A stretch of DNA of 44,421 nt from a virus (Duplodnaviria > Heunggongvirae > Uroviricota > Caudoviricetes): the IMG/VR virus record IMGVR_UViG_2529292911_000009. One strand, written 5' to 3'. The notes under the pieces were generated by a model. The model did no database searches. It worked only from the letters and a program-made list of their open reading frames with translations, and was not told where the DNA came from. Below, in pieces: positions 1,236 to 27,420 of this stretch. The number at the start of each line of letters is the position of its first letter. The first letter of the stretch is position 1. Both the position numbers and the translations under genes were made by a program.

Positions 1236-2505
1236 TCAATGTTCGCTTCCTGTTAACTGCCCGACAAGTGCAACCAGTTCGCTTACCTGATTTTCCAGAG
1301 TGCTGATCCGGGTGCCTGCTGTTGCCAGATTTTTACGTAGCGTTATGTTTTCCTCTTCCAGCGCGGTAACGCGACCATCTGTTTCACGGGCGACCTGAAC
1401 AAGTAACCCCGTCACGGCGGCGTAGTCAACATTCAGATAACGTGTTTCTTCACGTAATTCATTGCCGTCAACCGTTGGTCCCTGCAACTCTTCACCGTAA
1501 TGAGTAAACGATCCCACAGCTTCTGGTATCGCCTCCATTACTTCCTGTGCAATAACGCCAGCATAAGGCATCCCGTTTTCCCTGAGCGTGTAGGTGTATC
1601 CGTTCATTTTACGGATTGCTTTCGTCGCGTCGCTGATAACGAGAATATCGTCTTTAAGGTCGCGGTCTGATGACTGATTCAGCGTTGTGCAATTAATAGC
1701 GCCATTTACATCAAACAACTGGCCTGCTGACGTTTTTTGCGCATAAAACAGATACGCAGCAGACGTTCCAACCTCAAAAACGTTTTGTCGATCACTTGAT
1801 CCCCATACTTTTGCGGCAAATGATAGTTCTGTATTACCTAAGTTCTGTAAAACAAAACGATTGCCAGTCCCTGATTGTTTTGTAAGAGTTAAATCAACAG
1901 TTGAGTTAACCTCATCCTTGTTGATAGTGAGCGCCTGCGCTTTAGCACCGTTAACAGCACCTGTTTTGAGTTGAACTGCTCCATCACTGCCATTAAGTAG
2001 AATCTCTGCATTACTATGGTAGTTCTTAAGTGACACCATTTTGCTTTCGCCTGAGTGCATACCTAACACCCACGCAGCGGAACTACCTGTACTGTTAAGG
2101 CCGCGAACATAGCATGACATTGTAGAAAATCTGCAACGCTACCAAGTATCTCTACCCTACCTCCACCGGATTTAACTGGTGATGATGTTGTTACTGACTT
2201 AACAGAAAGCTCGGTTGCTGAATTGAGATCGTCAGCCGTAAGTAGTTTTTTCCATTCCTGAACCGTTCCGTTTTCAACTGTTCTTCCCCAAAAACCGGAA
2301 TTGCGGCCTCCGAACTGCACAGCATAATTTTTACTAAATTGAACATGAATGCCGCCAAGAACCATAGAGCCTGCCGGGCCGTTTGTACTACCTGCGATTG
2401 GTCTAAATTTGTCGACGTTATCAGTATGCTGAGCGTTCCAGTCATGACCTGTTAATGTTGCGATTCCTGAGTTAGCTGTAATTAACCCAGACGCTTTTAA
2501 GATTT
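1236..2505 (-). pseudogene. side tail fiber, C-terminal part in two shifted frames; includes C-terminal intramolecular chaperone (peptidase S74-like) domain
   Basis: ORFs 2063..2365 and 1236..2120 continue the tail fiber in other frames. Frame junctions fall at a T5 run (plus 2503-2507) and an A4 run (plus 2126-2129); adding one base at each restores one long ORF. The C-terminus (SFTHYGE...YLNVDYAAVTGLLVQVARE) resembles autocleaving chaperone domains. Could be genuine decay or homopolymer sequencing indels. Confidence 0.65.
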
Positions 2506-4512
2506 TTGCACATCAATTCTGTCGTTTGCGAAATTATATGCAATTGCGTTACTAACGCTTCCGGCATCATCATAATCGCGTTTCTGAATAAACCAGTCGC
2601 CAGCATTAGCAATGAGAGTATAAGTAGGCGTGTTAGCCGGGCGATCTGTTTCATTAAATCTTATTGCTGGGTTAGCGCTCCTTATTTGTAAAGGTTTTTC
2701 AACCGTGGATTTCAGTATCGCACTATCTACAATTAAATTACCTTCTGAGGTAAAGTCTAGATATTTTGTAGCACCAGTTGAACCACCGTATGTAAATCTT
2801 ATTGTTAATCGACCTTGCTCATTTGGAAAAGTCTGAACATACATATCAGCGGCAAGGCGCACAGTGTTGTCATTTGCTAACAGCCTCGTATGGAGCATTC
2901 CGCCAGTAGTGTATGCGCCAGTAGAATCACTAGTCCTATCGAGAAATAGACTATTAAGCTGAGGGCTGTTATCCCTGCCTAATCCAAGATTAGTTCTGGC
3001 ACCATCAATAGTTGCCGCACCAGTACCTCCGGCCGCGATCGAAAGCGGAATCCATCCGCTATTCTCTGCATCGAAATAACCCCATGTTCCTGAATCGTAG
3101 ATACCAAAAAATTTGCTTGCATTTTGACAATATACGCGTGTATTACCTGTTAGTTGAGTAAGCCTGTCCACTTCATCTTTTCTTGCGTGACGCGTCCACT
3201 GCGGGCCTATTGTCGGATTCCAGCGATAAGTATAAAGCGAGCGCGTAGCCCATCCCTGAAATACACCTGTATACGCTGGTGTTCCATCTACCTGACTAAT
3301 AAACCCCGTAAGACTGCTTTCACCGGATGCAATCGATGGAAAGCCTTTTGCATTACTCATAATGCGCATAAATCCGATATACCCTGATGGGTTGCCGGAA
3401 ATATCAGGACAATCACGCGGTGATGCCCCGAGGCCGATGCTGGTGCCTACAATCCCTTGCGCCTGGTTGCGATAATTAAGTGCGTCCGCTGCCGATTTCG
3501 CCGCGTTTGTTTCACTGGATTTAGCATTAGTTTCGCTGGCTTTAGCGTTGGTTTCGCTGCTCTTTGCTGCTGCCTCGCTATTTTTCGCGTTGGTTTCTGA
3601 TTTTTTGGCTGCTGTCGCGGAGTTTGCTGATGCAGTTTGTGAGTCTGCTGCCGCCTGTGCGCTGTTATCTGCATTCGTCTCAGACGTTTTTGCGGCCTTC
3701 GCGGAATTTCCTGCCGCCGTTGCCGAGGAAGCTGCACTACTGGCACTTGATGATGCGTTCGTTTCTGATGATTTCGCTGCCTCTTTTGAGGCCGACGCAT
3801 CCCGGGCTGAGGTGGCAGCTTCTGACGCCTTTGTGGTCGCTGCGGATGCAGAAGTGGCTGCAGATTTTTGTGACGCTGCCGCATTCGTTTCTGACGTTTT
3901 CGCGGCACTGGCACTGGTAGCTGCCGCGCTTTTTGAGGACTCTGCAGCAGCAGCACTTTTCGATGCTTCACTGGCCTTTGTTGATGCCGTTCCTGCGCTG
4001 GAAGACGCTGACTGAGCCGACGACGCGGCCTGTCCGGCTGACGTGCTGGCTGCGCGTGCTGAGCCTGCAGCATCAGTCGCATGGGTTGCCGCCTCACGGG
4101 CTGATGTGCTGGCATCACTGGCTGACTTCTTCGCGGCTGCCGTGTTCTGTGCCACCACGGACGCGTTACGCGCCACCTCTTCCACCATCAGTTCAAAACG
4201 GCGCAGAGCCTCCGGACGGGCATCATCCTCCGTCATGGCACCGAGAAAATCATTCAGCGTACCCGGTTGTGAGTCTTCATACACGGTGATGATCCCGGCA
4301 TGCGATGGCGGGAAGCCTTCCACCAACAGAATAACGCTGTACTGACCGTACTCAACGTCCATGCTGTAACGCCCGGCTTCATCCGGATTTTCAGATGCCA
4401 CCGTGTTCACCACCACCGTGGTGCTGTTACGTTTTGCTTTCAGCTGGATTGTGCAGTTCTGTACCGGTTTACCTGCACCGTCTTTCAGTACACCTGAAAT
4501 TTTTACTGCCAT
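2497..4512 (-). CDS. stf: side tail fiber protein (lambda Stf-like), N-terminal 671 aa
   Basis: N-terminus MAVKISGVLKDGAGKPVQNCTIQLKA matches the conserved Stf start. Long Ala/Ser/Thr-rich region with KSSETNA heptad repeats. True ATG at 4512 preceded by GGGGTGA; the ORF-track start at 4518 is a GTG. Confidence 0.85.
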   Translation of the reverse strand: MAVKISGVLKDGAGKPVQNCTIQLKAKRNSTTVVVNTVASENPDEAGRYSMDVEYGQYSVILLVEGFPPSHAGIITVYEDSQPGTLNDFLGAMTEDDARPEALRRFELMVEEVARNASVVAQNTAAAKKSASDASTSAREAATHATDAAGSARAASTSAGQAASSAQSASSSAGTASTKASEASKSAAAAESSKSAAATSASAAKTSETNAAASQKSAATSASAATTKASEAATSARDASASKEAAKSSETNASSSASSAASSATAAGNSAKAAKTSETNADNSAQAAADSQTASANSATAAKKSETNAKNSEAAAKSSETNAKASETNAKSSETNAAKSAADALNYRNQAQGIVGTSIGLGASPRDCPDISGNPSGYIGFMRIMSNAKGFPSIASGESSLTGFISQVDGTPAYTGVFQGWATRSLYTYRWNPTIGPQWTRHARKDEVDRLTQLTGNTRVYCQNASKFFGIYDSGTWGYFDAENSGWIPLSIAAGGTGAATIDGARTNLGLGRDNSPQLNSLFLDRTSDSTGAYTTGGMLHTRLLANDNTVRLAADMYVQTFPNEQGRLTIRFTYGGSTGATKYLDFTSEGNLIVDSAILKSTVEKPLQIRSANPAIRFNETDRPANTPTYTLIANAGDWFIQKRDYDDAGSVSNAIAYNFANDRIDVQKS

Positions 4513-4520
4513 ATTCACCC

Positions 4521-4552
4521 CACAAAAAAGCCCGCCTGAACCGGCGGGCTGT
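4521..4552 (-). terminator. intrinsic terminator between lom and stf
   Basis: Minus strand agcccgcc-ggttca-ggcgggct hairpin followed by TTTTTTG. Confidence 0.7.
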
Positions 4553-4576
4553 CATAACACTGTGTTACCTGGCTAA

Positions 4577-5176
4577 TCAGAATTTATAACCAACACCCAC
4601 GATGAACCCGTCAGTGCGCCAGTCACCACTGCCGGAGCCTTCATAAGCGACATCAATGGCCACGGATTCGGTCGGGTTAAACTGCACGCCAGCTCCCCAC
4701 GCCAGAGACGTGTTGCTGTGGCGACCGTCATCACTTCCGGTCAGCACATCGTGCTTTTTCCCCTTGTTGTCAGTTACGCGGAGATAATCCCCGGAGAAAG
4801 TCGACACACGGCTGTAAGCCACACCCGCCATCGCATACGCGCTGAACCATTCATTCACGCGCACAGACGGCCCCGCCATTACGCTGAACCAGCGGTTACG
4901 AACGGAATCTTCATGCCAGCGGGTATCGCTGTAACGGGTAATCTGGCGATTCTTGTCTCCTGCATAGCTGAACGACGTCACCATCCCCAGTGTGTCCGTA
5001 AACTCATAACGGTATTTCACGTTAATCCCGTTCAGATCATCACTGCCGGGAACGTTCGTCCGGGCATGAAGATACCCCGCGCTCAGCGTGGACTGATGTT
5101 CAGCCGCCCATGCAGGCGCACCGGATACGGCCAGACAGATGGCTGCGGACAAAATGGCGGCATAAAGTTTACGCAT
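4577..5176 (-). CDS. lom: Lom/Ail-family outer membrane beta-barrel protein
   Basis: Signal peptide [24 protein letters not shown], alternating beta-strand pattern, C-terminal GYKF. Sits between J and stf as in lambda. Confidence 0.9.
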
Positions 5177-5192
5177 AATTACCTCTCGCTTT

Positions 5193-5226
5193 TCTGCAAT
5201 AAAAAAGGCGCCAGAAATGGCGCCCG
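5193..5226 (-). terminator. intrinsic terminator between J and lom
   Basis: Minus strand ggcgcc-atttct-ggcgcc hairpin followed by TTTTTTATTG. Confidence 0.65.
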
Positions 5227-5244
5227 CATATGGGTTATGAAAAT

Positions 5245-8200
5245 TCAGCTAATCGTGATACCTGCTGTGGATTTCTTCATCACCACAACCAGCAAATCGC
5301 TGATGCTTGCTGTGGGATACCAGTTATTTACCAGCCATGCTGACACCGAAAACTCCAGTATCATGTGACCGTGACCGGCAGGCATATCAATAACACCACT
5401 GTAAATCAGCGTATTATCCAGCGCGGTACGGTTATAAATTTCAGCACCGTTTTTCCGCACTATCAGACGGCATGAGGAGTAAATATCAGTATGCTCTCTC
5501 TCATGCTTAGCGCCACTGAATGCCACCGCGGGAATAACAATCTGCCGGTCAAACGGCTGATCGTCATAAACCCTGACGGTAATGGTCCCTGATGGCCACC
5601 GCTCCGGTGCACGGGAGTCCCGGGGGAAAGCTTTGCCCACTGTTTTAACGAGATCGCCTTCAATCTGGTTCGCGGACAGTTTTCCCAGAACCCGACAGTT
5701 CTCGTTAATCGTGACATTGTTGAGCGTCCCTGAATTTGCATTCACATTACCGCTGATATCCGCATTTTTAGCGGTCAGCTTTCCGTCTGGTGTCAGGGAA
5801 AATGCCGGCGGATTTCCACCGCTGGTAATGGTGGGAGCCGTCAGGCGTTTCAGGAACACGTCGTTCATGAATATCTGGTTGCCCTGCGCCACAAACATCG
5901 GCGTTTCATTCCCGTTTGCCGGGTCAATAAACGCGATACGGTTAGCGGCAACCAGAAACTGGCTCAGTTTGCCTTCCTCTGTGTCCTCCATGCTGAGGCC
6001 AATACCCGCGACATAATGTTTGCCGTCTTTGGTCTGCTCAATTTTGACGCCCCACATGGCATTCCACTTATCACTGGCGTCCTTCCACTCTTTCGAAAAC
6101 TCCTCCAGTTTGCTGGCGTTATCCTCCGTCAGCTCGACTTTTTCCAGCAGCTCCTTGCCGAGATGGGATTCGGTTATCTGGCCTTTGAAAAAATCCAGGT
6201 AACCTTCCGCATCATCGCTCGCCCGACCAACAGCCTCCACGAATGCCGATTTGCCGACGGTGTTCACACTGCGGATATAAAAGTAATAATCACGACCCGG
6301 TTTGATATTGATACTGGCGGCTATCCAGTACAGCCCCGTGCCAAGATAGCGGGCTGTGGTTTCAACCTGCCTGATATCGGTAATCCGCTTTTCCGAGAAC
6401 CAGAACTCAAACTGTACCGTCGGATCATAAACCGCAAGATGCGGCGTTGCGGTTATCTGAAAATAGCCCGGCGTCAGCTCAATCCGCGACGGTGCTGCCG
6501 GTGCGGCGATCCGGAACGATACCGACGCCGGATCGCCCTGCTGTCCCCACGCATTTACCGCCCGGACCGTCAGCCTGTAGTTCCCCAGCGCCAGTTGCGT
6601 GAAGCGGTATGTGGTTTCCGTCGTCCTGGCCGTGCTGACCAGCCGCTCACTGCCGTCATCCGCTGCCACGGTCAGGCGAAGCATAAAGCTCACGCCCTTC
6701 ACCACCTTCGGCGTGTCCCATCGCGCCAGCACCTGATATTCCCCGCTGTCTGCGGTGACTTCGGCGGTCAGATGCTGCACTGCTGGCGGCGTGACACCAT
6801 TCACCGTGCCGCTCTGGTCACCGTCAAAGTGCGCCCCGTTATCCACGATGGCTTCTTTCTCCGGTACATGCTGCACGGCAGTGATGGCATACGTGCCGTC
6901 GTCGTTCTCACGGATACTCACACAGCGGAACAGGCGCTGGCGCAGCGTCGGCAGCTTCAGCCCCCACACGCTGTATCCGGCAACGCCGTCAGGAACCCGG
7001 CTCACTTTCACCTTCACGCCGTCGGTGACGGACTGGACCTCCACGCTGACCGGATTGCCACTTCCGTCAACCAGGCTTATCAGCGTGGTGCCGGAGGATG
7101 GCAGCGTGATTTCACGGTCGAGCGTCAGCGTCCGGGTCTGGCTGTTCACCGCCAGCACACGCCCGCCGATGCTGATCCCCGCATAGTCATCATCACAGAT
7201 TTCAATGACATCGCCCGGTACATGGCGAAGCCCTTCGGCACCCACGCTGAAATCCACGGTCTGCGTCTCCAGCAGCTCCGTTTTAATCAGCCACAGCCCG
7301 GCGCGGTGTGCCTGCCCCCGGCTGGTACAGCCAAAGGCATCCATCTTCGTGACGTTACGACCGTAACGGGCAATGGCCTGCGTATCCTCCACAAGCTCTG
7401 TCGCCGTCTCCCAGCCGTTATCCGGGTCAATCCAGTTCACCTCAACGGCATTATGGCGGTCCTTCAGGGCGCTGAAGCTGTAGCGGAACGGCGCGCCATC
7501 ATCCGGCATCACCACATTACTGCGGTTATAGGTCCACACCTTATCCGACGGTCGGTCCTGCACGAACGTCAGCGTCTGCCCGTTCCATACCGGCATACAG
7601 CGCATCGCCGAGCAGAAATCGCTGAGAACATCCCACGCCTTACGCTGTGTGGTCAGCCAGGCATTACAGGTGATGCGCGGCTCCGTGCCGCCAAAACCAT
7701 TCGGTACCAACTGGTCGCAGTACTGGCCGATAACGTACAGCGCCCATTTGTCCACATCTGCCGCACCAAGACGTTTCCCCATGCCGTAGCGTGGATGGGT
7801 CAGCATATCCCACAGACACCAGGCCATGTTGTTGCTGTATGCTGGCTTAAACGTTCCGTCCCAGATACCGCTGTATTGCCGCGTCTGCGGGTTATAGTTC
7901 GACGGCACCTGCAGAATACGCCCGCGCAGATGATAATTACGGCTCACCTGCTGGCTGCCGAACTGCTCCGAATCCACCTGCACGCCGACCAGTGCCGTAT
8001 TCGGGTAGCACTGTTTCACATCGATGATTTCGGTGTATGACGACCAGAGCGTTTTGTTCTGCAGCTGGTCTGTGGTGCTGTCCGGCGTCATCCTGCGCAT
8101 CCGGATATTAAACGGGCGCGGCGGCAGGTTATCCACCACCACCGAGGCCAGATACTGCGAGGTGGTTTTGCCCTTAATGGTGATGTCTTTTTCCGTCACC

Positions 8201-8640
8201 CAGCCACCGTTACGTTGTATCTGAACCAGCAGGCGGACTTCCGATGGATTCCTGTCCCCCTTTGAGGTGGTTTCCACCAGTGCCTGCACACCGAAGGTAA
8301 AGCGCAGACGGTCGATGTTTGCCGACGTGATGGTGCGGGTGATCGGCGTGTCATATTTCACTTCCGTACCCAGCACCGTCTCGGAGCCGGAGGATTCAAA
8401 TCCCTCCGGCGGTGTCTGCTCCTGCTCGCCTGCCCGGAACACCACCGTGACGCCGGAGATATTGGTATTCCCCTCGCTGTCCAGCACCGGCGTACTGTTC
8501 AGCAGCACGCTTTTTAATCCATCCACCGGACCTTCAACCGGACCTTCGCTGATGGCATCAATCACACTCAGCAACTGCGTGGACTTCAGGTTGTCCTTCG
8601 CTTCGCGCGGGGTATGCCCCTTACTGCTGCCTTTACCCAT
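5245..8640 (-). CDS. J: tail tip host-specificity protein J
   Basis: 1131 aa. N-terminus [34 protein letters not shown] and most of the length are collinear with lambda J as recalled; the C-terminal roughly 150 aa diverge. Confidence 0.95.
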
Positions 8641-8700
8641 TCCTCACGCTCCATAAACGACAAAACCGCCCGGAGGCGGTTTCACATAAAACATTTTTCA

Positions 8701-9348
8701 TCAGCGACCAATCACCACAACCTGACCACCATCACCTTCATCTGCCGTGCTGATCTCCTGAGATACCACCCGCGACCCCACACGCATTTCACCGTACAGA
8801 ACGGGCAGAACATTGCCCTGGGCAACCATGTTATCCAGTGACGAGAAATACGTGTTCTGTTTGCCGTTATCTGTACTGGCTGCCGTGGGCGTCCTGGCTT
8901 TCGGTGCCAGCATCTGCGCCACACCACCCAGGATCATACTGGCCCCTGCTGCATACATACCCGATACAGCCGCGGCCCCTAGCCAGCCCACAGGGTTCCA
9001 CCATGCCACCGCAATCAGCGCCGCACCCAGCACCGCCTGAAACACACCGCCACTTTTGGCCCCCTCCAGACGCGGAACGATGTGGATCACGGCACCATTT
9101 GCCAGCGGCTCATTAAGACGGGCAGACAATTCGGTTTCACCTGCATCACGCCCGGCAATCCGTACCTGATACCAGCCGTCACTCAGTTTCTGACGAAACG
9201 CCGGGATCTGCATGGCCAGCGCCCGGATGGCTTCGGCCCCCGTTTTCACACGAAGGTCGATGCGGCGGCCAAATCGTTGTAAATTCCCGTAAAGGCAGAT
9301 GCGTGCCATGCCCGGTGACGCCAGAGGGAGTGTGTGCGTCGCTGCCAT
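8701..9348 (-). CDS. I: tail assembly protein I
   Basis: 215 aa, MAATHTLPLASPGMARICLYGNLQRFGRR..., lambda I-like with hydrophobic C-terminal region. Position between K and J. Confidence 0.85.
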   Translation of the reverse strand: MAATHTLPLASPGMARICLYGNLQRFGRRIDLRVKTGAEAIRALAMQIPAFRQKLSDGWYQVRIAGRDAGETELSARLNEPLANGAVIHIVPRLEGAKSGGVFQAVLGAALIAVAWWNPVGWLGAAAVSGMYAAGASMILGGVAQMLAPKARTPTAASTDNGKQNTYFSSLDNMVAQGNVLPVLYGEMRVGSRVVSQEISTADEGDGGQVVVIGR

Positions 9349-9989
9349 TTGTCGGTATACCTCTCTCGTTTGCTCAGTTGTTCAGGAATATGGTGCAGCA
9401 GCTCGCCGTCGCCGCAGTAAATGGCGGCATGATTCGGCACCGATGAACCAAAACAGCACAGCAGCACATCGCCCGGCTGCGCCTCTGTCAGTGCGACACG
9501 GTAAAAACTAGTCGCCTCCATATTGTCAAGATAGAGATTCTGGCCGTTACGCCACCAGTCATCCCCGCGATAAAAATCCGGCATCTCAATTTCCGCCAGA
9601 TGGTATGCATCCCGGAACAGCGTGTAACAGTCCGTCACCCCGTGCTCAAAGCGCCGCCCGGTAAGATGTGGCACACAGCGGAACTTGTGAATCGCCCCCC
9701 GGCAGACCAGCCACCACGGCAAATCACTCTGCACCTGCAGCCGCCTGTCGACCTCACTCAGCCAGGGCAGACCACCGGGGTGGCTGTGGACCAGTGCCAC
9801 AACCTCCCCCTGCATCTCTGCCTGCAGCCAGTCCTCCGGCGACATCCGGAAATACGCCTCCGGCTCACCGGAGATATTCACGCAGGGAAAATATCTGTCC
9901 CCCTCCGGCGTTCTCACCACGAAGCCGCACGACTCCGCTGGCGCACATCGCCGGGCGTGCGCCAGAATCGCTGATTCTGTCTCTGTCAT
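9246..9989 (-). CDS. K: tail tip assembly protein K (JAB/MPN plus NlpC/P60-like)
   Basis: HSHPGG metal-binding motif and a Cys/His peptidase-like C-terminus. Start taken at MTETES; the ORF-track start at 10064 overlaps L and is probably an over-extension. Confidence 0.8.
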   Translation of the reverse strand: MTETESAILAHARRCAPAESCGFVVRTPEGDRYFPCVNISGEPEAYFRMSPEDWLQAEMQGEVVALVHSHPGGLPWLSEVDRRLQVQSDLPWWLVCRGAIHKFRCVPHLTGRRFEHGVTDCYTLFRDAYHLAEIEMPDFYRGDDWWRNGQNLYLDNMEATSFYRVALTEAQPGDVLLCCFGSSVPNHAAIYCGDGELLHHIPEQLSKRERYTDKWQRRTHSLWRHRAWHASAFTGIYNDLAAASTFV

Positions 9990-9993
9990 GGGT

Positions 9994-10692
9994 TTACTGC
10001 GAAAGTTTGTTAATGGAAAGGTAGCCGCCAAAATTGCCGACGTTATTGCGGAACTTGCAACCACTCAGGCATTTGCTGCATTTATCCTTCGTGATATCGG
10101 ACGTTGGCTGGTCATATTCATCCGCGACCGCCGGGCCATCATAACCGCACTCATCGCCGCGGTAGATCCAGGTGCAGGTGTTGGCCAGCATGATGCGCCC
10201 CGGAAAAACAGCACCATCCGTTTCCGTCGGTGTGGACAGCACAAAAGAGGCACTGACCGCGCTCAGTTCGCTGCACTGTTCGATGCGCCAGCGGCTGATC
10301 ACCTCCTGCTCCGGATCGGCGTCACTGTTTCCGTTGACGAAGTTCACCGCATCCAGAAAACGGGCGTAAACCTTACGCCGGACCACCGTTCCGCCGACCA
10401 GACTCTGCAGATCTTCCGCCATCCCGGTGACCATGCCGTACAGATTAGAGACTTTAAGCGTTGGCCTTGCACTGGCTCCTTTGCCGTTCATCTCAAATCC
10501 GCTTCCCTGAATGGGATAAGCCTGATACTGCCGCCCCTGCCAGGTGACTGGTTCACCTTTTTCGTTCTGCTCATTACAGAAGAAATAACGATCTCCGCCG
10601 ACTTCTGTCAGATCAATTTCCCAGAGCACGACCAGCGCGGATTGCTCCGTTTTAGTGCACTCATTGAGTGTTTCCTGCTGTATATCCTGCAT
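9994..10692 (-). CDS. L: minor tail protein L
   Basis: 232 aa, same length and order as lambda L. Cys cluster near the C-terminus. Confidence 0.85.
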   Translation of the reverse strand: MQDIQQETLNECTKTEQSALVVLWEIDLTEVGGDRYFFCNEQNEKGEPVTWQGRQYQAYPIQGSGFEMNGKGASARPTLKVSNLYGMVTGMAEDLQSLVGGTVVRRKVYARFLDAVNFVNGNSDADPEQEVISRWRIEQCSELSAVSASFVLSTPTETDGAVFPGRIMLANTCTWIYRGDECGYDGPAVADEYDQPTSDITKDKCSKCLSGCKFRNNVGNFGGYLSINKLSQ

Positions 10693-11048
10693 CAGTGAGT
10701 GACCTCTTCAAAGGTACAGTTAAAATCGGTATACATGGTATTATCCGAAATGCTCCACTCCCTGCAGACAACCCGGACAGTCCTGTTGTGTTTTGGCGGA
10801 CGCCACAAAAAAGCACGAATCCCGGCATGACGGGATAAAAAACTGTCCAGCGCGGCACGGGAATATTCATCTGTGACACGAAATACCGGTTTAAACGTTT
10901 TCAGATCCGCATTCAGACCACCAGCCCGTCGCTGTTCATATCCGTCACCAAACTTTACCGTAATAACTGATGGCTTTCGTGTCGTCTCCATCCCCTCACG
11001 GGGGATCCAGTTAAAAACTTCAGGCTCAGGCACTGTACAATCCTCCAT
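10692..11048 (-). CDS. M: minor tail protein M
   Basis: FGDGYEQR...GLNADLKTF...FLWRPP matches the lambda M pattern (FGDGYSQR...GLNANLKTY...FLWTPP). Start codon uncertain (11048 or 10991). Confidence 0.75.
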   Translation of the reverse strand: MEDCTVPEPEVFNWIPREGMETTRKPSVITVKFGDGYEQRRAGGLNADLKTFKPVFRVTDEYSRAALDSFLSRHAGIRAFLWRPPKHNRTVRVVCREWSISDNTMYTDFNCTFEEVTH

Positions 11049-14000
11049 CCCGACGCGATGACTGCATAATTGACACAACCCTGCTGTCGATCAGATCCAC
11101 CAGTCCCCTGGCTGAGCGCGCATCTATCTCGCCATTGCTCCCTTGATTCTGAATGCTGATGTGATACACGGGAGAATAAACAAATCCACCGCCACCATTC
11201 ACATTTCCAATGGCCCTGACCCCAAGAGAGCCGTCCGCTGCCCGTGTCAGTGGCATGATTGCTTCAGGCCCGGCCTCGCCCATCAACCCGGCACCTTTCG
11301 CAAAAGCAAAATACGTCGGTGTATCCACAATAGTGTTACTGTAAGCACTCAGATTTGCCGATGTGTAAACACCACCTTTTGCGTTTGCCACTGCCCCCGA
11401 AATCCATCCGCCGACCGTACCAAGCCACCCTCCGGCACCGGAGAGTGATTTCAGTCCGTTAACAATGGCTGCATTCATCAGAATTTTTGAAACTTCCCGG
11501 AGAACTGAACTCCCCCAGTTCCTCCAGTCCACAACATTCCCGGCCAGTGCATCGGAAATATTTGATACCAGCCCGTCCATCGTGGAAACGACAGCATCTG
11601 CCGCCTGTGAAGCATAATCGGTGGCACTGTCTGCCCAGTTGGTCAGTCCCTCCTGGAGTCCGGCATTCCAGTTATTACGTAAAGCATCGGCCTTTGCATA
11701 ATAATCCTGCTGATCGCTGAGACGCTCTTCCAGATATTTTTTATTCAGTTCTTTCTCCTGTTTCCACAGAGCTTCTTCAATTTCTCCGGCCTGATACTGT
11801 CTCAGCAGCTCGTTATTTTTCTGCTCAAACGCCTGCCGGATACTCCACATTTCCTGGAGTCGTTCACGCATCCGTGAGCCTTCACCATATCCCAGCAACT
11901 GCGCTTCGTCAGATGCCCGGGCACTGGCATTACTGTCCGCCAGACTGCTCTCATACGCAGCAAGCTGCTCACGAATCTTTTTCTGGTCGATGAGTGCTGC
12001 ATTCTGCAAAAGCGTTTTTTTCTGCGCTTCTGACAGGGTTGATAATTCGCCCTGACTGACCTGATATTTCATCTTAGCCAGTTCAGTATTCTGCCCTGCC
12101 AGTGCTATTTGTTCTTTTTGCTGTTTAATCAGCCGTTTATAAATATCTTCTGTTTTTTCCGCTTCGGTCTTTTTATGCGCTTTGGGTTTATTTGCCTGGT
12201 TATTTCGCCAGGCATCCAGTGAGTTATTGATATAATTCTGTCTGGCTGTCTGATACGCCTCTCCCACAAAGCCGAGATCATCCGCAGCATAACCCAGGCG
12301 GGCACGCTCACGGGCTTCCCCCTTCAGGCGGGACAGAGCCAGTTCGCGCTCACTGTTATTCAGTGCGGCCTGCTGTTTATCATCCAGGGTTGCCTGTGGT
12401 AGCCGTAACGGTACATTCACCAGCCCCTGTCGCTGCTGAAGTAATTCATTACCGAGCCCGAGAAGGCGATTAAACTCGGTATGCTGCCCATTCATGATCA
12501 ACAGGGACTGATACGCTTTGTTTTGTTCCGCGGCCTGTTGACGGATCAACGCCACCCGTCGCTCCTCCAGCCCGGCAAGCACATCCTGAATGGATTGCGC
12601 TTTGCCCTGCATTTGTGTGAGACGGGACTGTTCAACTGCCAGTTGATTTGTTGCTTCTGCAAGCCCTTCTGTGACAGTTTTTACCGACGTCATGTGGTTA
12701 ATCATAAAACCGTTATCGGTTGTCCAGCCCGGGTTTGCCAGCACATACTGATAGCCAGCAATTTTTTCCTGTAAGGATTTAATCTTACTTTTCTGCTCGT
12801 CAATTAACCTGTTTTGCTCATCAAGTGCCTGCCGCGTCTTTTCCTCATTATCTGACGCTTCAGGAAGCGACATTGCCGACGTTTTCTGGCGAATTTCGTC
12901 GATTGTTGCGGCATACTGGCGTGCAGATTCTCTGGCCTGCTCCTGATTCTGATACATCGTGTACCAGGCCGTCGCCCCCAGCATGACGAGTCCCGGCACA
13001 CCACCAACCAACCCCAGCGCACCACTTAACAGACGACTCCCCACTGACGTGACAGTATTCAGCGTTGTCTGTGCCGCTGTTCTGGCCGCAATATTACGGG
13101 TAAGTGACGCCTGGGCAGCTGTCAGCTTCGCTTCTGCTGCGGCCTGCCTTTCGGTACCGCGAGCAGCAACAACCGCCTGTTGCGCACGATAAACCGCCGC
13201 ACGCGCCCTGGCGGTTGCTATCTGTGTCCCCCGAAGTTGCGCTTCAGCAAGAGCCACTTCTTTTCTGGCTGCAGTAATTAATCCGGCAGTTGCAGATCCA
13301 GCAGACGACGCCATATTGCCAAAATATCGGGCTACCCCGACGGCAACCAGTGCGCCAGCTGCAGCAGCCACGGTATCCATATTGTCTGCAACACCATTCA
13401 ACACCCCGGTGAGTGTCTTTGTCACTCCGCTTGCCTCGTTCGCACCACCAACCCAGGCCATAAAGGCGTTTTCAACTTTGGTTGCAGAGGATGAAACAGT
13501 ATCAGGCATTGCTGCATATTCATCACGCAACGCCCCAAGCTGACTAATCAGTGCAGGAACAACCTTATCGGCGGTCAGTTTTCCGTTATCCGCCATGGCC
13601 TTCAGATCCTTACGGGCAACACCCATTCCCGCAGCCAGCGCACGAATAACACGATCGCCGTTCTCATTCACAGAGTTAAATTCTTCACCGCGCAGCACTC
13701 CCTGCGCCAGTGCCTGACTGAACTGCGTGATCACCGAACTGGCTTCTGCTGTACTGGCACCGGATAATTTCAGGCCCGTAGAGATCGCCTCGGTGACTTT
13801 CAGTACCTCCTCAGAACTGTAGCCATACTCCCGCATGGAAGCTGCAGAGCGGGCAAAAAGGCTGGCGTTATCAGAAAACGCCGTTCCCGTTCTCTGGCTG
13901 ATTGCCATTAATTCACGTTGTGATACCTGAAAATCATCACTGGACTGTGAAGCCTGCTTCAGACGGGCATTTACTGAATTCCACTCATCGGCGAGAGAAA

Positions 14001-14259
14001 TAAGATGACCGGTAGCAAAAGCTCCGGCAAATGCCCCCGCCATATTCAGTGCCGAAGATTTAGCTATATTTATCTGATCCGTCACTTCTGCCAGTGCACG
14101 CCGCATTTCACGGGATGCAGCAGCGGACTGCCGGCCTCCGTTCTGCATGGTACGGTAGTAATCCTGCCCCATACGCGAAGCCCGGGAGATCTCTGACTGG
14201 AATGACCGGGAATTTGCCGAGATTTTAATAATCAGTTCACGTAATGTCGCCACACTCAT
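11026..14259 (-). CDS. H: tail tape measure protein (H-like)
   Basis: 1077 aa, long predicted helical Ala/Gln-rich protein between GT and M. Gly-rich C-terminal region. Confidence 0.9.
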   Translation of the reverse strand: MSVATLRELIIKISANSRSFQSEISRASRMGQDYYRTMQNGGRQSAAASREMRRALAEVTDQINIAKSSALNMAGAFAGAFATGHLISLADEWNSVNARLKQASQSSDDFQVSQRELMAISQRTGTAFSDNASLFARSAASMREYGYSSEEVLKVTEAISTGLKLSGASTAEASSVITQFSQALAQGVLRGEEFNSVNENGDRVIRALAAGMGVARKDLKAMADNGKLTADKVVPALISQLGALRDEYAAMPDTVSSSATKVENAFMAWVGGANEASGVTKTLTGVLNGVADNMDTVAAAAGALVAVGVARYFGNMASSAGSATAGLITAARKEVALAEAQLRGTQIATARARAAVYRAQQAVVAARGTERQAAAEAKLTAAQASLTRNIAARTAAQTTLNTVTSVGSRLLSGALGLVGGVPGLVMLGATAWYTMYQNQEQARESARQYAATIDEIRQKTSAMSLPEASDNEEKTRQALDEQNRLIDEQKSKIKSLQEKIAGYQYVLANPGWTTDNGFMINHMTSVKTVTEGLAEATNQLAVEQSRLTQMQGKAQSIQDVLAGLEERRVALIRQQAAEQNKAYQSLLIMNGQHTEFNRLLGLGNELLQQRQGLVNVPLRLPQATLDDKQQAALNNSERELALSRLKGEARERARLGYAADDLGFVGEAYQTARQNYINNSLDAWRNNQANKPKAHKKTEAEKTEDIYKRLIKQQKEQIALAGQNTELAKMKYQVSQGELSTLSEAQKKTLLQNAALIDQKKIREQLAAYESSLADSNASARASDEAQLLGYGEGSRMRERLQEMWSIRQAFEQKNNELLRQYQAGEIEEALWKQEKELNKKYLEERLSDQQDYYAKADALRNNWNAGLQEGLTNWADSATDYASQAADAVVSTMDGLVSNISDALAGNVVDWRNWGSSVLREVSKILMNAAIVNGLKSLSGAGGWLGTVGGWISGAVANAKGGVYTSANLSAYSNTIVDTPTYFAFAKGAGLMGEAGPEAIMPLTRAADGSLGVRAIGNVNGGGGFVYSPVYHISIQNQGSNGEIDARSARGLVDLIDSRVVSIMQSSRRDGGLYSA

Positions 14260-14267
14260 TCTCCGGA

Positions 14268-14291
14268 CGAAAAAAACCGCCGAAGCGGTTA
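14268..14291 (-). terminator. intrinsic terminator-like hairpin between T and H inside the tail operon
   Basis: Minus strand AACCGC-UUCG-GCGGUU hairpin followed by U7, 10 nt after the T stop and directly before the H ribosome-binding site. Confidence 0.6.
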
Positions 14292-14298
14292 TGTTGAC

Positions 14299-14610
14299 TC
14301 ACTGAGACACTATTAAAAGCGCGTTTTCCAGTCCGGCAAATGGATCTGAGACGCCTTCTGTCTGCTCTTGTTCCCACTGAAGAAGCGCATCATTCAGTGG
14401 GACTTTGACACCCTGCGCACCGTAAACCGCAGAAACTATCTGGGCAGCCCGGATATCAGCCCGCTCGTCACCCAGCGGGCTGAACCTGTCAAATTCTGCC
14501 CACATCATGATTTCTGATGCGGACATTTCCCGGCGTAACTCTGACAATGTGCGCCCCATCCTGAGCGCCAGCATCATCAGAAAACGCATCCCCGGAAGCG
14601 CTACTTTTTT
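14299..14610 (-). CDS. T: T segment of the tail assembly chaperone GT fusion, reached by -1 programmed frameshift
   Basis: The -1 frame stays open from the slippery site through to the stop at 14299; no independent start or RBS is needed. Confidence 0.8.
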   Translation of the reverse strand, partial: KKVALPGMRFLMMLALRMGRTLSELRREMSASEIMMWAEFDRFSPLGDERADIRAAQIVSAVYGAQGVKVPLNDALLQWEQEQTEGVSDPFAGLENALLIVSQ

Positions 14611-14987
14611 TTAACCTCGCCGGCATCACTGATCAGTTCCAGAGACTGCCGAAGAAGCCGCGCATGCACCGGGCCATACACGGCAATCACCTGTTCACGA
14701 TCATCCTCTGAAAATACAGGTTGCAGTCCGGTATCACACAGAACATCAATGAATAGTTCAACATCTGCCTCCAGATTTCGGCGGGCGCGCTCCGCAACGG
14801 ATAACGGTGTCTCATCATCTTTTGCTTTAACGATCTCCTGCCAGCGCAACCAGGCTTCTGCAGAAGGTTCCCGTAATACAACCGTTGCCCCTTCCCATTC
14901 AGGCACATCAACAGTTTTATGGCGAAACCCCGACATCGTTGCCAGTGCCAGATTGCGGATATTTTTAGTCATCACATCTATCCTCAT
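14601..14987 (-). CDS. G: tail assembly chaperone G
   Basis: 128 aa acidic protein directly downstream of the major tail gene, ending EVKKK at the slippery site. Confidence 0.85.
   Translation of the reverse strand: MRIDVMTKNIRNLALATMSGFRHKTVDVPEWEGATVVLREPSAEAWLRWQEIVKAKDDETPLSVAERARRNLEADVELFIDVLCDTGLQPVFSEDDREQVIAVYGPVHARLLRQSLELISDAGEVKKK
14604..14612 (-). other. slippery heptamer A_AAA_AAG for -1 programmed ribosomal frameshift (G to GT)
   Basis: mRNA reads GAG GUU AAA AAA AAG UAG; shifting -1 on A AAA AAG continues into the T frame. Confidence 0.8.
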
Positions 14988-15691
14988 TAACTGACGGTAA
15001 CAGTGCAGGAAGTGGAGGTCACCTTGTTAACAGGGCTTGCTGAATCAGAAATCTCGCAGGTATACGCACCGGCATCACCTGATGCTGCTGATGCCTTACT
15101 GAATGTTGCCGCCGTCTGTCCGGAAACAGGAGAACTACCTTTCTTCCAGACATAAGAATAAGGCGGCACACCACCGGCAGCCTCAACCACCATTTCGAGT
15201 TTCGCTCCGGCAGAAACCTGCAGCGTGCTGTTTAAATCGACCTTCACTTTCAGCGGCTCTGTCGTCAGCACAGGTTTACCTTTCAGGCGCAGGGAAAACG
15301 TTGCAGCCACAACACCATTAGTTCCTGCAGACCAGGTATGCTGACGCACCTCTGCCATAAAGGTAAATCCGTTGCCTGACGGAAAAATAACTTTAAAGCC
15401 ATACGTGGTGTCATTGTCATAGGCACTGCGCAACGCGTTCTGGGCAGCATTGAGGTAAAAGTTGCCTGACATGGAAATCTCTGACGCGGCACCAAGGCCG
15501 TTAATATTTTCCTGCTCAACAGAACACAGCGTGGTGACATCAATATCCTGCTTTTGTCCTGCGGTAAACTGCACCTCTTTGATTGTACAGCTCAGGCCAA
15601 GATAGCTGGCAGAATCCAGGGTTTCTGCTGTTACCGGTGCAGACGAAATCATAATTTTCGTCAGTTGCGAACGCTCAAAATTAGAGGACAT
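14987..15691 (-). CDS. V: major tail tube protein with C-terminal Ig-like domain (V-like)
   Basis: Position upstream of G/GT/H. C-terminal Ig-like segment (TSTSCTVTVS). Start set at MSSNF (AGGAGA RBS); the upstream ORF-track extension translates the terminator hairpin. Confidence 0.8.
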   Translation of the reverse strand: MSSNFERSQLTKIMISSAPVTAETLDSASYLGLSCTIKEVQFTAGQKQDIDVTTLCSVEQENINGLGAASEISMSGNFYLNAAQNALRSAYDNDTTYGFKVIFPSGNGFTFMAEVRQHTWSAGTNGVVAATFSLRLKGKPVLTTEPLKVKVDLNSTLQVSAGAKLEMVVEAAGGVPPYSYVWKKGSSPVSGQTAATFSKASAASGDAGAYTCEISDSASPVNKVTSTSCTVTVS

Positions 15692-15702
15692 ACTCGTCTC
15701 CT

Positions 15703-15730
15703 GAAAATAAAAAACCCGCCAGCGGCGGGT
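15703..15730 (-). terminator. intrinsic terminator-like hairpin upstream of the major tail gene
   Basis: Minus strand acccgccgctggcgggt hairpin followed by TTTTTTATTTT, then RBS and V start. Confidence 0.55.
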
Positions 15731-15750
15731 GGGTAAAATCATTAACGACC

Positions 15751-16095
15751 TCAGGCTATTACCTGAAATTCAAGCGTGGCTCTGCTCAGACGGGAATCAG
15801 GATCATAACCCTGAGTTTTAGAAATAACGGAGGGTGCAAGTTGCCTTACCGCATCAAGCGCCTGCTCACGGATATCATCTGCGTCATCAGGTACTGTTGC
15901 CCAGACATCGATCTGCACGGTAATTCTGGATTCAGCCTGACCATCAAGCACATCAGACGCAGTGTCAGACACCACAGAAAATACCAGCCATGGCGGAGAT
16001 ACCGCAGGCTTTCCCTCCGTCAGCGGGACCACATAAGGATAAACCTGTCCTCCGGCCAGTTGAGACAGCAGGGAATACAGTGTGGTCTCTCTCAT
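15751..16095 (-). CDS. tail terminator / tail completion protein (U-like position)
   Basis: 114 aa, position immediately upstream of the major tail gene; start overlaps the upstream gene stop. Assignment by synteny only. Confidence 0.55.
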   Translation of the reverse strand: MRETTLYSLLSQLAGGQVYPYVVPLTEGKPAVSPPWLVFSVVSDTASDVLDGQAESRITVQIDVWATVPDDADDIREQALDAVRQLAPSVISKTQGYDPDSRLSRATLEFQVIA

Positions 16096-17201: not shown

Positions 17202-17390
17202 CTATGAATGCTGTTTTTTAGACTTATCAGCCCCCCGCGCAACAGGTGTTCTCTTATCAGAGACAATCCCAGCTGCAGTGGCAATTTCGCGTACCCGTTC
17301 GGGTAATTCTTTATCTTCATACTCACCGGCCCGAATAATCTCAACACGCATACCGTCCGGTGACCATTTCAGATCTTGTTTCAGGATCAT
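17202..17390 (-). CDS. small hypothetical protein in head module
   Basis: 62 aa ORF fitting exactly between capsid and connector genes, with AGGTGA RBS 7 nt before the ATG. Confidence 0.5.
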   Translation of the reverse strand: MILKQDLKWSPDGMRVEIIRAGEYEDKELPERVREIATAAGIVSDKRTPVARGADKSKKQHS

Positions 17391-17441
17391 GATTCTTTCA
17401 CCTGTCAGAACAGGGGGCGCACTTCTGCGCCCCCTGAATGA

Positions 17442-25580: not shown

Positions 25581-25606
25581 ATAAAAAAGGGCCACCAGCG
25601 GCCCGT
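25581..25606 (-). terminator. intrinsic terminator immediately upstream of the lysis genes
   Basis: Minus strand gggccgctggtggccc hairpin followed by TTTTTTATTT. Confidence 0.7.
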
Positions 25607-25923
25607 AAAAAAACACCCCATCAAAGACACCCGCAGATGCCTTTTATGTGGTGTTATCTGATGTGATGTGCGCCTGACGTGGCTCGGAGAAAATGAAATA
25701 AAGCTTATCTGAAATTAAGGTTAATCCGGGGATTTAAACCATTTTTAAAGCTTAGTAATATCAAATCGTCTCCTGGAGGAGACTGATGCTTATTCTTCTT
25801 CACGGACTTTGTCCCGCGGCGTTAATCCGACAGCCGCGCTTTTTTTGCGCTCAGTTCATTATTAGCTTTCATGGCCTTGCCACACGGGTAATATCAATGC
25901 CCGTGTATTCTTTTCTGAGTTCA

Positions 25924-25954
25924 GAATAAAAAAACCGCCCGATAGAGGCGGTTA
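25924..25954 (-). terminator. intrinsic terminator downstream of the tRNA array
   Basis: Minus strand aaccgcctctatcgggcggtt hairpin followed by TTTTTTTATTCTG. Confidence 0.75.
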
Positions 25955-26220: not shown

Positions 26221-26295
<75 letters not shown>

Positions 26296-26298
26296 ATA

Positions 26299-26374
<76 letters not shown>

Positions 26375-26376
26375 AC

Positions 26377-26453
26377 TGGACCGCCACCGGGGACTCGAAC
26401 CTCGCACACTCAACTTAAAGGGTTGACGCTCTTTCCTGATGAGCTAGTGGCGG
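26377..26453 (-). tRNA. tRNA-like gene, anticodon loop CCUUUAA (nominally Lys UUU), atypical
   Basis: Cloverleaf can be drawn (acceptor CCGCCAC/GTGGCGG, D stem GCTC/GAGC, T loop TTCGAGT, CCA) but it has C at position 33, C1-G72, U73 and one T-stem mismatch. Confidence 0.45.
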
Positions 26454-26454
26454 C

Positions 26455-26629: not shown

Positions 26630-26659
26630 TGGCACAAAAAACCCGCTTGTGGGCGGGTT
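26630..26659 (-). terminator. intrinsic terminator just downstream of the Q-like gene (tR'-like)
   Basis: Minus strand aaacccgcccacaagcgggttt hairpin followed by TTTTTTG. Confidence 0.6.
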
Positions 26660-26724
26660 TTGTTTGCTTTTGCCATCACGTACAAAATCGGCAAAATATC
26701 AGATTTGCATGAAATATATGCCTT

Positions 26725-27420
26725 TCAATCTACTTTTGCAACACTTTGCTTTGAAAATGCCGCCTTTTGTTTTGAACGTGTTCTCATTACAAACAATAAA
26801 GCCTCACTATCAAGTCGGTGAAAAATGTGTTTCATTGCAACCCAGTGACGAGTAAATGTTTTGGACCAGTTTTTAGTTGTCACTCCCGCCAGTAATGCCA
26901 GCTCCTGGTATTCATAACCTTCCCCACCAAAAAGTTCTGCTTTTAATGCCTGCGCCGCCAGCCAGATTAATTTTTTCAGGCGTTCCTGCGTTTTCCCTGC
27001 AATTTTTCTGGTACCGGATTGAGTATTAAATTCATTCCACGCCCACTGTGTTATCGCGATCTGATATTCCCAACAAATACTCCCGCTGTAACACCACAAC
27101 AACCAGGCTTTATGATGTTCTTCAAGAGACAGAACTGCCCGTCGCCATGATGATGTCGAAAACTCAACCTGACTTACCAGAGCAATTGATGAGCCTTTCG
27201 CCAGTGATTGTTTTCCCGGTATCGGTGGACTATCCCGCGTTATCATTCTTCCAGTCACTTCATCGCGGTACCGGATTTTTTTACGCCTGTAACGCCCTGT
27301 ATCAAACATGGCATTCTCCTGCCAGGCTTCAAGCTGACCTTTTGTTGCCCCACTCAAATCAGCGGTAGCGATAATGAGCTGCTCACGCACAAACTGTAAA
27401 TACTGGTTATTCATGCGCAC
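26725..27420 (-). CDS. putative late-gene antiterminator (Q-like)
   Basis: 231 aa, between rusA and the late terminators/tRNAs/lysis genes, the canonical Q position. Family not confirmed from sequence. Confidence 0.45.
   Translation of the reverse strand: MRMNNQYLQFVREQLIIATADLSGATKGQLEAWQENAMFDTGRYRRKKIRYRDEVTGRMITRDSPPIPGKQSLAKGSSIALVSQVEFSTSSWRRAVLSLEEHHKAWLLWCYSGSICWEYQIAITQWAWNEFNTQSGTRKIAGKTQERLKKLIWLAAQALKAELFGGEGYEYQELALLAGVTTKNWSKTFTRHWVAMKHIFHRLDSEALLFVMRTRSKQKAAFSKQSVAKVD

Follow-up and report, generated by a model that had tools for sequence, protein, structure and literature searches.

Terminators inside phage late operons are common, and may either block non-antiterminated transcription or terminate transcription partially; their function has been described as unknown (PMC8022706). 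The closest described arrangement is that of HK97 (GenBank AF069529; Juhala et al. 2000), in which the gene order and the slots occupied by putative terminators are the same as in the window, the whole stretch of 44,421 nucleotides analysed in this work (IMG/VR record IMGVR_UViG_2529292911_000009). Putative HK97 terminators have been annotated between the tail terminator gene gp11 and the major tail gene gp12 (6692-6719), after gene 15 and just before the tape measure gene H (8398-8422), before J (15107-15129) and after the capsid gene 5 (5192-5213). They match, in this order, the slots called here U-V, T-H, I-J and post-capsid. The design is shared, as hairpin, T-run, ribosome-binding site and ATG follow one another in HK97 as in the window, but the hairpin sequences differ. 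HK97 also carries an additional terminator after the major tail gene, and lacks lom. Morons bring their own promoter and terminator; HK97 gene 15 sits between the tail chaperone and the tape measure genes, and the lambda Lom protein is listed among moron products (PMC3594210). The T-H slot is filled in HK97 by the gene 15 moron, whereas the same slot is empty in the window.

Lambda shares other parts of the set. Lambda and the window have near-identical versions of the lom-stf terminator and of the I-J hairpin, the identity being 95-98% over the spacers (98% for the I-J spacer). After J, lambda has a hairpin and a T-run in the same place as J-lom, of different sequence. In turn, the U-V gap of lambda is only 7 nt long, and T and H overlap, so that both internal terminators are missing. 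The lom-stf terminator may be related to the classical t'J sites of lambda (Luk and Szybalski), a link that we do not assert. The feature is already known, annotation of these slots in HK97 dating from 2000, and two of the sequences being present in lambda. HK022 has U-V, lacks the T-H terminator, and shows in the cor-to-stf region the same moron design, with a cargo other than lom between J and stf.

More distant parallels can be drawn. In the P22-like phage L a predicted intrinsic terminator lies, as in the window, within a single-promoter, antiterminated late operon, but the genes involved are podovirus morphogenesis genes, and the site marks the end of the procapsid module (PMC8022706). 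In Tn916 a terminator blocks premature expression of the element, and is overcome by dedicated antitermination (PMC11658703). This is an analogy only, Tn916 being a Gram-positive conjugative element which relies on a different antitermination mechanism. Concerning lambda-type regulation, transcription starts constitutively at pR', and in lysogeny is terminated (PMC7547250), and the nozzle formed by Q prevents terminator hairpins from forming, making the Q-loaded polymerase termination-deficient (PMC9388147).

The window corresponds to a lambda/HK97-like prophage of E. coli, the tail module of which is found in 903 of 5426 complete E. coli genomes. The gene names given in the sequence-only reading (U-like, V-like, G, T, H, J, Lom, Stf and the Q-like antiterminator) held on checking. 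The V-like major tail protein carries an Ig-like domain at its C terminus. Genes and signals relevant to the discussion are listed in Table 1.

Table 1. Positions in the window of late genes, predicted terminators and related elements.
Feature	Coordinates	Strand	Details
lom-stf intrinsic terminator	4523..4550	-	hairpin 4550-4529, 8 bp with 7 GC, then U6
lom outer-membrane protein gene (moron)	4577..5176	-	phrog_108, E 9e-110; two terminators bracket the gene
J-lom intrinsic terminator	5200..5225	-	hairpin 5225-5206, then U6
I-J hairpin	8655..8683	-	core CCGCC-UCCG-GGCGG at 8679-8666, then UUUUGUCGUUU
Tape measure gene H	11026..14253	-	likely GTG start at 14253, 7 nt after GGAG
T-H intrinsic terminator	14268..14291	-	hairpin 14290-14275, C(UUCG)G tetraloop, U7 run 14276-14270
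T segment of the G-T tail assembly chaperone	14299..14589	-	PF06223, phrog_337
Major tail protein gene (V-like), 234 aa	14987..15691	-	phrog_158, E 4e-108
U-V intrinsic terminator	15704..15730	-	7-bp stem, hairpin 15730-15714, loop GCU, then U5AU4
Tail terminator / tail completion protein gene (U-like)	15751..16095	-	phrog_347, PF11367
Post-capsid GC hairpin	17410..17435	-	strong, immediately downstream of the major capsid gene; dG about -22 to -25
pR'-like promoter and tR'-like terminator	26636..26741	-	directly downstream of Q
Q-like late antiterminator gene	26725..27420	-	phrog_304, E 2e-106; PF06323 Phage_antiter_Q, E 2e-89

The sequence-only reading had placed canonical hairpin plus U-tract terminators in four gaps of the late operon, and at each of these positions a terminator-like structure is indeed present on the minus strand, on which the late genes are encoded. 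Each is made of a compact GC hairpin directly followed by a T-run, and lies in a short intergenic gap, as expected for a canonical intrinsic terminator. The four stems span 6-8 bp and include 4-7 GC pairs, loops are 3-6 nt long, predicted energies range from -8 to -17.6 kcal/mol, and a U5-U7 stretch immediately follows the stem at all sites. The distance from the hairpin to the Shine-Dalgarno sequence of the next gene is everywhere 8-22 nt. Downstream of the U-V hairpin (ACCCGCC-GCU-GGCGGGU, dG -12.0), at a distance of 12 nt, comes the AGGAG that serves the major tail gene as ribosome-binding site. T-H (AACCGC-UUCG-GCGGUU, dG about -8) has the UUCG tetraloop and the seven U residues that had been noticed at first sight, and is followed by GGAG and by the start of H. 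J-lom (GGGCGCC(A)-UUUC-(U)GGCGCCU) and lom-stf (AGCCCGCC-GGUUCA-GGCGGGCU) are more stable, dG being -14.2 and -17.6, respectively, and stf starts directly downstream of the latter. The folding energy of T-H is unexceptional when compared to shuffled sequences (z = -0.17 in a 44-nt context); hence the case for this site is built on canonical architecture and conservation. Overall, the feature is genuine and ordinary.

Terminator prediction, suggested as a check in the sequence-only reading, was carried out with a strict motif, and recovered all four sites above chance. The motif required a fully paired stem of 5 bp or more, of which 4 or more were GC pairs, a loop of 3-7 nt, and 5 or more T residues adjoining the stem. 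The 24.4-kb late region contains six matches on the sense strand, the four sites among them, and none on the antisense strand; 0.18 +/- 0.38 matches are expected by chance, as estimated from 100 dinucleotide shuffles. A looser ViennaRNA search for hairpins with a T tail returned more than 160 candidates in the whole window, was non-discriminating, and was replaced by the strict motif and the shuffles. A search of Rfam at the gathering threshold assigned no known RNA family to any of the sites, the only matches being sok, DicF and tRNAs.

Hairpins fill all the room available to them. No more than six of the intergenic gaps from terS to stf are longer than 14 nt, the remaining junctions being at most 14 nt long or overlapping, and all six host a GC hairpin. 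In addition to the four sites, these are the I-J gap and the gap following the capsid gene. A T-rich tract follows the hairpin in five of the six, as a clean T-run at four and as UUUUGUCGUUU at I-J. I-J, with this interrupted tract, is a weaker terminator-like element. The post-capsid hairpin has no U-tract, and probably either stabilises RNA 3' ends or terminates weakly. Both I-J and post-capsid hairpins had been overlooked in the sequence-only reading.

Components of a putative Q-dependent circuit are present as well. The Q-like gene is located downstream of rusA, where the early-right operon ends. The pR'-like promoter (TTGCAA-17-TATATT, 26741-26713) was identified by consensus scan, and the tR'-like terminator, a hairpin at 26658-26641 followed by U6, by scan and folding. 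Downstream of the terminators no internal late promoter was found, except a 9/12 match at 14250-14222, which could not express H because it lies within the H coding sequence. As the products of the genes from H to J are needed to make tails, and the sole nearby promoter-like site is inside H, late transcription must cross the internal terminators, as had been surmised.

Three of the four sites can be read in terms of morons, according to the criteria of Juhala et al. (2000). Judged by homology, the T-H site of the window is an empty moron slot of the HK97 gene 15 type that has retained its putative terminator; the gap measures 45 nt, and contains neither ORFs nor cargo. The lom gene qualifies as an extra gene, being missing between J and stf in HK97 and replaced by other cargo in HK022, and has at its 3' end its own terminator, lom-stf. 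Neither the sequence preceding lom nor the T-H gap yielded a match to a promoter consensus. A distinct base composition, frequent in morons, was considered as a further mark of lom and discarded, as its GC content (0.558) does not differ distinctly from that of J (0.568); the value for stf is 0.505. In the sequence-only reading neither T-H had been seen as a gene 15 slot, nor lom as a terminator-bracketed moron. A moron slot at T-H and the bracketing of lom provide a simpler rationale for these terminators than stoichiometry.

Conservation was analysed at two levels. The 80 close IMG/VR relatives retrieved by T protein are 98-100% similar, too alike to test structure, and vary only in the length of the T-tract. 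A wider set was obtained by T-protein alignment, followed by a scan of species-level genomes. In this set the U-V hairpin and T-run are found in 37 of 37 related loci (from HK97, HK022 and approximately 30 genomes of Enterobacterales), and persist though U is only 37-61% identical and the upstream spacer cannot be aligned. In the MAFFT alignment 91% of the cells are paired, vs 84% in the shuffles, and none of 500 shuffles reaches 91%. Double-sided changes are 21, vs 8.9 in the shuffles (0/500), and slid controls are paired at 31-56%. None of the 37 loci hosts a moron at this site.

The T-H slot is variable. Among 30 informative loci, 19 carry cargo and terminator, six the terminator only, and five neither. 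Cargo genes are diverse, encoding membrane proteins and lipoproteins, and in all 19 cargo-bearing loci the insertion ends in a terminator located directly before the ribosome-binding site of H. The 22-nt hairpin and T7 of the window are identical to the terminator of a moron cassette encoding a Zn-ribbon protein of 110 aa in Leclercia/Enterobacter prophages, and homology to the cassette stops precisely where the hairpin has its 5' foot. Six sequences share this hairpin and T7 without any change, against an identity of about 80% in the neighbouring H coding sequence. In moron-bearing relatives a promoter, (N)TGACT-N17-TAGGAT, overlaps the T stop codon. At the other moron, the J-lom hairpin and T-run are present in 79 of 80 lom loci, and the stem occurs in compensatory variants (GGCGTCA/TGACGCC, GGCACCA/TGGTGCC, GGCGCCA/TGGCGCC); lom-stf is conserved in the 80 lom loci, where changes are limited to the loop, or to G-C replaced by G-U. 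At the level of sequence, the invariance of T-H, the compensation in J-lom and the covariation in U-V indicate purifying selection.

The sites are, on balance, probably Rho-independent terminators which insulate the late genes from polymerases lacking Q, and are read through by the Q-modified enzyme. Termination, Q-dependent read-through and insulation are what we infer from the arrangement of sequences described above. According to this explanation, polymerases without the Q modification, which in a lysogen would start at constitutive moron promoters, at a leaky pR' or at spurious promoters, would stop at the terminators; these would work as insulators, prevent the expression of structural and tail genes during lysogeny, and set the 3' ends of moron transcripts. 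Upon induction, Q would load onto polymerase at pR' and narrow the RNA exit channel, terminator hairpins could not form, and a single long late transcript would cross every site. T-H would be the terminator end of the gene 15 moron slot, J-lom and lom-stf would close both sides of the lom moron, and U-V, conserved universally, would be the terminator that separates head/connector from tail genes. The explanation does not cover every site equally well. The T-H slot of the window has no cargo and no moron promoter, and a role in ending moron transcripts is therefore not applicable there; since U-V is free of morons in 37 loci, insulation does not obviously account for its universality. The modest stability of the T-H hairpin also counts against insulation.

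Because hairpins precede the Shine-Dalgarno sequences by 8-22 nt, a role at the RNA level would fit the spacing equally. In this case, instead of or besides terminating transcription, the hairpins would, once endonucleases have processed the transcript, act at 3' ends as barriers to exonucleases and at 5' ends as stabilising stem-loops, and the U-rich tract preceding the Shine-Dalgarno could make initiation of translation more efficient, or uncouple it, for V, H, J, lom and stf. V-G-T is indeed bracketed by two hairpins, U-V and T-H, and might form a long-lived mRNA; the post-capsid hairpin, being devoid of a U-tract, cannot be a classical terminator, and U-V is universal without any association to morons. 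Yet, the T-run adjacent to the stem, a hallmark of termination that a stabiliser would not need, has been kept at all sites and in all relatives, and the interpretation is purely inferential. We regard it as unlikely.

The proposal that the terminators tune stoichiometry, also advanced in the sequence-only reading, is weakly supported. Hairpins would be attenuators, at each of which even the Q-modified polymerase partially terminates, so that mRNA falls stepwise, and H and the tip genes are expressed less than the tube protein. The position of T-H is the one expected, as it separates the abundant V and G from the low-copy genes H to J. Terminators have been annotated in HK97 after the major capsid and the major tail genes, in the window a hairpin follows the capsid gene, and partial termination has been named as a possibility (PMC8022706). 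However, U-V, the only universal site, lies between low-copy connector genes and the gene for the most abundant tail protein; being upstream of V, attenuation there would lower V, against the ratios required. Moreover, the Q-loaded polymerase is termination-deficient (PMC9388147), and T-H is dispensable in relatives which build the same type of tail. That T-H is needed for stoichiometry as a general rule was rejected, because lambda, HK022 and five of the 30 informative loci do without it. All considered, attenuation seems an unlikely explanation.

A composite solution, which we similarly deem improbable, would assign different roles to the two internal sites, U-V being an obligatory cis-acting RNA element of the tail module, and T-H a true cassette slot. 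If so, U-V would set the output of the major tail protein post-transcriptionally, as a 5' stem-loop, a U-rich enhancer or a processing boundary, which would explain its presence in all 37 loci without a moron. The T-H slot would consist of a constant promoter, the -35 of which overlaps the T stop codon, exchangeable cargo and a constant terminator, and the terminator-only site of the window would represent its empty form.

That T-H, and possibly other sites, are functionless scars of moron gain and loss, left after deletion of the cargo or serving as neutral landing sites, is suggested by the variability of T-H among relatives, the indel breakpoint at the foot of its hairpin and a slot lacking promoter and cargo in the window, but is very improbable given the invariance of the T-H hairpin and T7 next to a diverging H gene, the compensatory changes in the J-lom stem and the covariation of an omnipresent U-V.

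The terminators described here carry little weight as a discovery, as similar elements have been annotated in Q-antiterminated late operons since the HK97 and HK022 genomes. Of some small value is that U-V has been singled out as a universal site marked by compensatory changes across prophages of Enterobacterales, and is the best candidate for separating roles in insulation, attenuation, and RNA stability or translation. In addition, the junction between chaperone and tape measure genes has been documented as a recurrent cargo slot.

The window is a lambdoid E. coli prophage with late genes on the minus strand. The Q-like antiterminator gene is followed by four tRNA genes, lysis genes, terS/terL, portal, protease, an HK97-type major capsid gene (MCP), four connector genes and the tail genes, in the order U-like tail terminator protein, V-like major tail protein, G, T, H, M, L, K, I, J, lom and stf. 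The nearest phage record is vB_EcoS-640R1 (96%), and the V-G-T-H module is present in 903 of 5426 complete E. coli genomes. Rfam matches to the sok antitoxin RNA of a hok/sok-type locus (30095-30270, minus strand) and to the DicF sRNA (37712-37763, plus strand) reside in the early region. Genes for tRNA-Ser (42188-42277, minus strand) and tRNA-Asn (43269-43344, plus strand) lie near the right end, past phage-related genes, and this end may be host flank or integration region.

Intrinsic terminators had been proposed by the sequence-only reading at four junctions of the late operon, U-V, T-H, J-lom and lom-stf. All were found at the proposed coordinates on the coding strand, and are canonical intrinsic terminators. 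The observation is right, and its statistical support is solid. In the 24.4-kb late region a strict terminator motif has six matches on the sense strand and none on the antisense strand, against 0.18 +/- 0.38 expected by chance (100 dinucleotide shuffles); the six comprise the four proposed sites, a site immediately 5' of the holin gene, and a marginal match. Hairpin energies at the four sites range from -8 to -17.6 kcal/mol, and the weakest, T-H, is unexceptional by energy alone (z = -0.17). Placement is as telling as motif statistics. From terS to stf genes overlap, or are spaced by 14 nt at most, with six exceptions, and a GC hairpin resides in each of these six wider gaps. Two of the elements, the I-J and post-capsid hairpins, had been overlooked. 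An unannotated 62-aa ORF (17202-17390, minus strand) of lower GC (0.47) is located 3' of the post-capsid hairpin, between the capsid and adaptor genes; a Pfam search of the ORF gave no match, and it may be a small addition similar to morons, extra phage genes inserted between neighbours.

Late-side features of the window, and putative terminators in HK97 (AF069529 coordinates)
Feature	Position	Strand	Gap (nt)	Description
Q-like antiterminator gene	26725-27420	-		first in late-side gene order
Post-capsid hairpin	about 17435-17410, within 17391-17441	-	51 (MCP-orf62)	very stable, GC-rich, dG about -25, z = -5, no U-tract
U-V terminator	15730-15704	-	59	ACCCGCC-GCU-GGCGGGU, then U5AU4
T-H terminator	14290-14270	-	45	AACCGC-UUCG-GCGGUU with U7 run
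I-J terminator-like element	8655-8683 (hairpin 8679-8666)	-	60	CCGCC-UCCG-GGCGG, then UUUUGUCGUUU
J-lom terminator	5225-5200	-	68	8-bp hairpin, then U6
lom-stf terminator	4550-4523	-	64	8-bp hairpin, 7 GC pairs, then U6
HK97 putative terminator	5192-5213			after major capsid gene 5
HK97 putative terminator	6692-6719			between tail-terminator-like gp11 and major tail gp12
HK97 putative terminator	8398-8422			after moron gene 15, just before tape-measure H
HK97 putative terminator	15107-15129			before J

The elements belong to a class already annotated in HK97, and are partly sequence-identical in lambda. The HK97 GenBank record AF069529 lists late-operon features as "terminator, putative" at matching slots, and alignments with the window at these slots show a common design. 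HK022 carries the U-V hairpin, but lacks the T-H gap. In lambda, the lom-stf terminator and the I-J hairpin match the window almost base for base, and the I-J spacer is 98% identical; a hairpin with T-run also follows J, but its sequence is unlike that of the window, and both the U-V and T-H gaps are missing.

The Q apparatus of the window comprises the Q gene (PF06323), a pR'-like promoter that overlaps its 3' end, and, about 50 nt further downstream, a tR'-like terminator. Genes for tRNA Met, Lys, Thr and Gly (26221-26530, minus strand) separate tR' from the lysis genes. Three more terminator-like hairpins (including 25589-25654 and 25933-25953, minus strand) are found after the tRNAs and before the holin gene, so that Q-modified transcription must cross those too. 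Upon loading at pR', Q forms a nozzle at the RNA exit channel, blocking the formation of terminator hairpins (PMC9388147); pR' is constitutively active, yet terminated in lysogens (PMC7547250). Tails cannot be made without genes H to J, and none of the internal terminators is followed by a usable promoter. Late transcription must therefore cross them, and the earlier proposal of Q-mediated read-through is probably right. The most economical role of the sites is insulation. Polymerases lacking Q, whether started at moron promoters, by leakage from pR' or spuriously, would be stopped, and moron transcripts would be ended in the lysogen; to Q-loaded polymerase the sites would be invisible. Insulation is one of two options that the Casjens laboratory considered for sites of this kind, the roles of which are "not known" (PMC8022706), and is paralleled by the insulating terminators of Tn916 (PMC11658703).

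An alignment of T-protein homologues provided 34 loci (L083-L116), with T 49-69% identical, from about 30 Enterobacterales genomes, the genera including Leclercia, Enterobacter, Klebsiella, Pectobacterium, Pantoea, Yersinia and Serratia. The gap 5' of the major tail gene measures 43-66 nt in all 34, and invariably hosts a compact GC hairpin with a T-run that immediately precedes GGAG-N-ATG. Counting the window, HK97 and HK022 as well, hairpin and T-run occur in 37 of 37 loci. Distinct hairpins number 31, and stem pairs 2 and 3, numbered outward from the loop, are C-G and G-C in roughly equal shares. In an unfitted MAFFT alignment 91% of the cells are paired versus 84% in shuffles (0/500 as high), and double-sided changes are 21 versus 8.9 (0/500); slid controls are 31-56% paired. 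The covariation signal is moderate because the CCGC/GCGG core itself varies little, and universality is the stronger argument. The spacer from the upstream stop codon to the hairpin (L083-L116, HK97, window 15731-15750) is 15-25 nt long, C/A-rich, G-poor and unalignable, as in CCCACACCAACCC and CACCATCATCATCAC; it may serve to prevent folding here, or act as a short Rho-binding-like tract. The sites may instead have a role at the RNA level, either as hairpins that stabilise a 3' or 5' end, or as U-rich enhancers placed 8-22 nt ahead of each Shine-Dalgarno sequence. This is the best alternative to insulation for the universally conserved U-V element, but the invariant T-run speaks for termination. 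The evidence for universality of the U-V terminator in tail modules of this type is a modest addition to current knowledge.

HK97 gene 15, located between T and H, was the first element to be named moron. In the 34 loci the T-H junction (about 1985-3100 in each) is a cargo slot that recurs across Enterobacterales prophages. One or two inserted genes are present in 19 loci, and each cassette ends with a terminator directly 5' of the H ribosome-binding site; six loci are empty but retain the terminator, like the window, five are empty, with a 20-22-nt gap and no terminator, and in four H was not reached. Cargo includes HK97-gp15/YebO-like proteins of 61-68 aa, a 110-115-aa transmembrane and Zn-ribbon protein, several lipoproteins, and others; antirepressor-like ORFs are also found, on the reverse strand. 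In the window, hairpin, T7 and ribosome-binding site align colinearly with the 3' end of the Zn-ribbon cassette. Six sequences in which the adjoining H coding sequence is about 80% identical share the 22 nt AAACCGCTTCGGCGGTTTTTTT unchanged, and homology with the cassette stops precisely where the hairpin begins on its 5' side. A promoter-like (N)TGACT/A-N17-TAGGAT, the -35 of which overlaps the T stop codon, is common to the loci with cargo; the motif is missing at the T-H junction of the window. Morons have been described as carrying their own promoter and terminator (PMC3594210). The T-H site of the window, a terminator without promoter or cargo in the slot of gene 15, is therefore the empty, terminator-only state of a known moron slot, and its recognition is again a modest advance. 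The stoichiometric tuning earlier envisaged fits T-H, but is a weak explanation: attenuation at U-V would cut the most abundant tail protein, and lambda, HK022 and five related loci do without the T-H element.

At the lom flanks, the J-lom hairpin and T-run are retained in 79 of 80 lom loci (L119-L198). The stems GGCGTCA/TGACGCC, GGCACCA/TGGTGCC and GGCGCCA/TGGCGCC are all linked by compensatory changes. In the same loci the lom-stf terminator differs only in its loop, in T-tract length or through G-C to G-U changes. The HK022 cor-to-stf region follows the common plan, with a moron and a terminator ahead of the ribosome-binding site of a late gene. Conservation patterns contradict the notion that the terminators are pure scars of past insertions. 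Insulation, RNA-level, attenuation and scar readings are not mutually exclusive.

In the J-lom hairpin of the window (5206-5225, minus strand) the loop, AUUUCU, is the exact reverse complement of the AGAAAU of most relatives, with stem unchanged, and recurs in only one of the 80 lom loci (L148); sequence comparison thus suggests that the hairpin tip was inverted. Among the 80 close IMG/VR relatives (L002-L081), otherwise identical sequences differ in T-tract length (T7/T8/T9 at T-H, T6/T7 at U-V), and two contigs carry a second copy of the U-V hairpin, possibly an assembly artefact.
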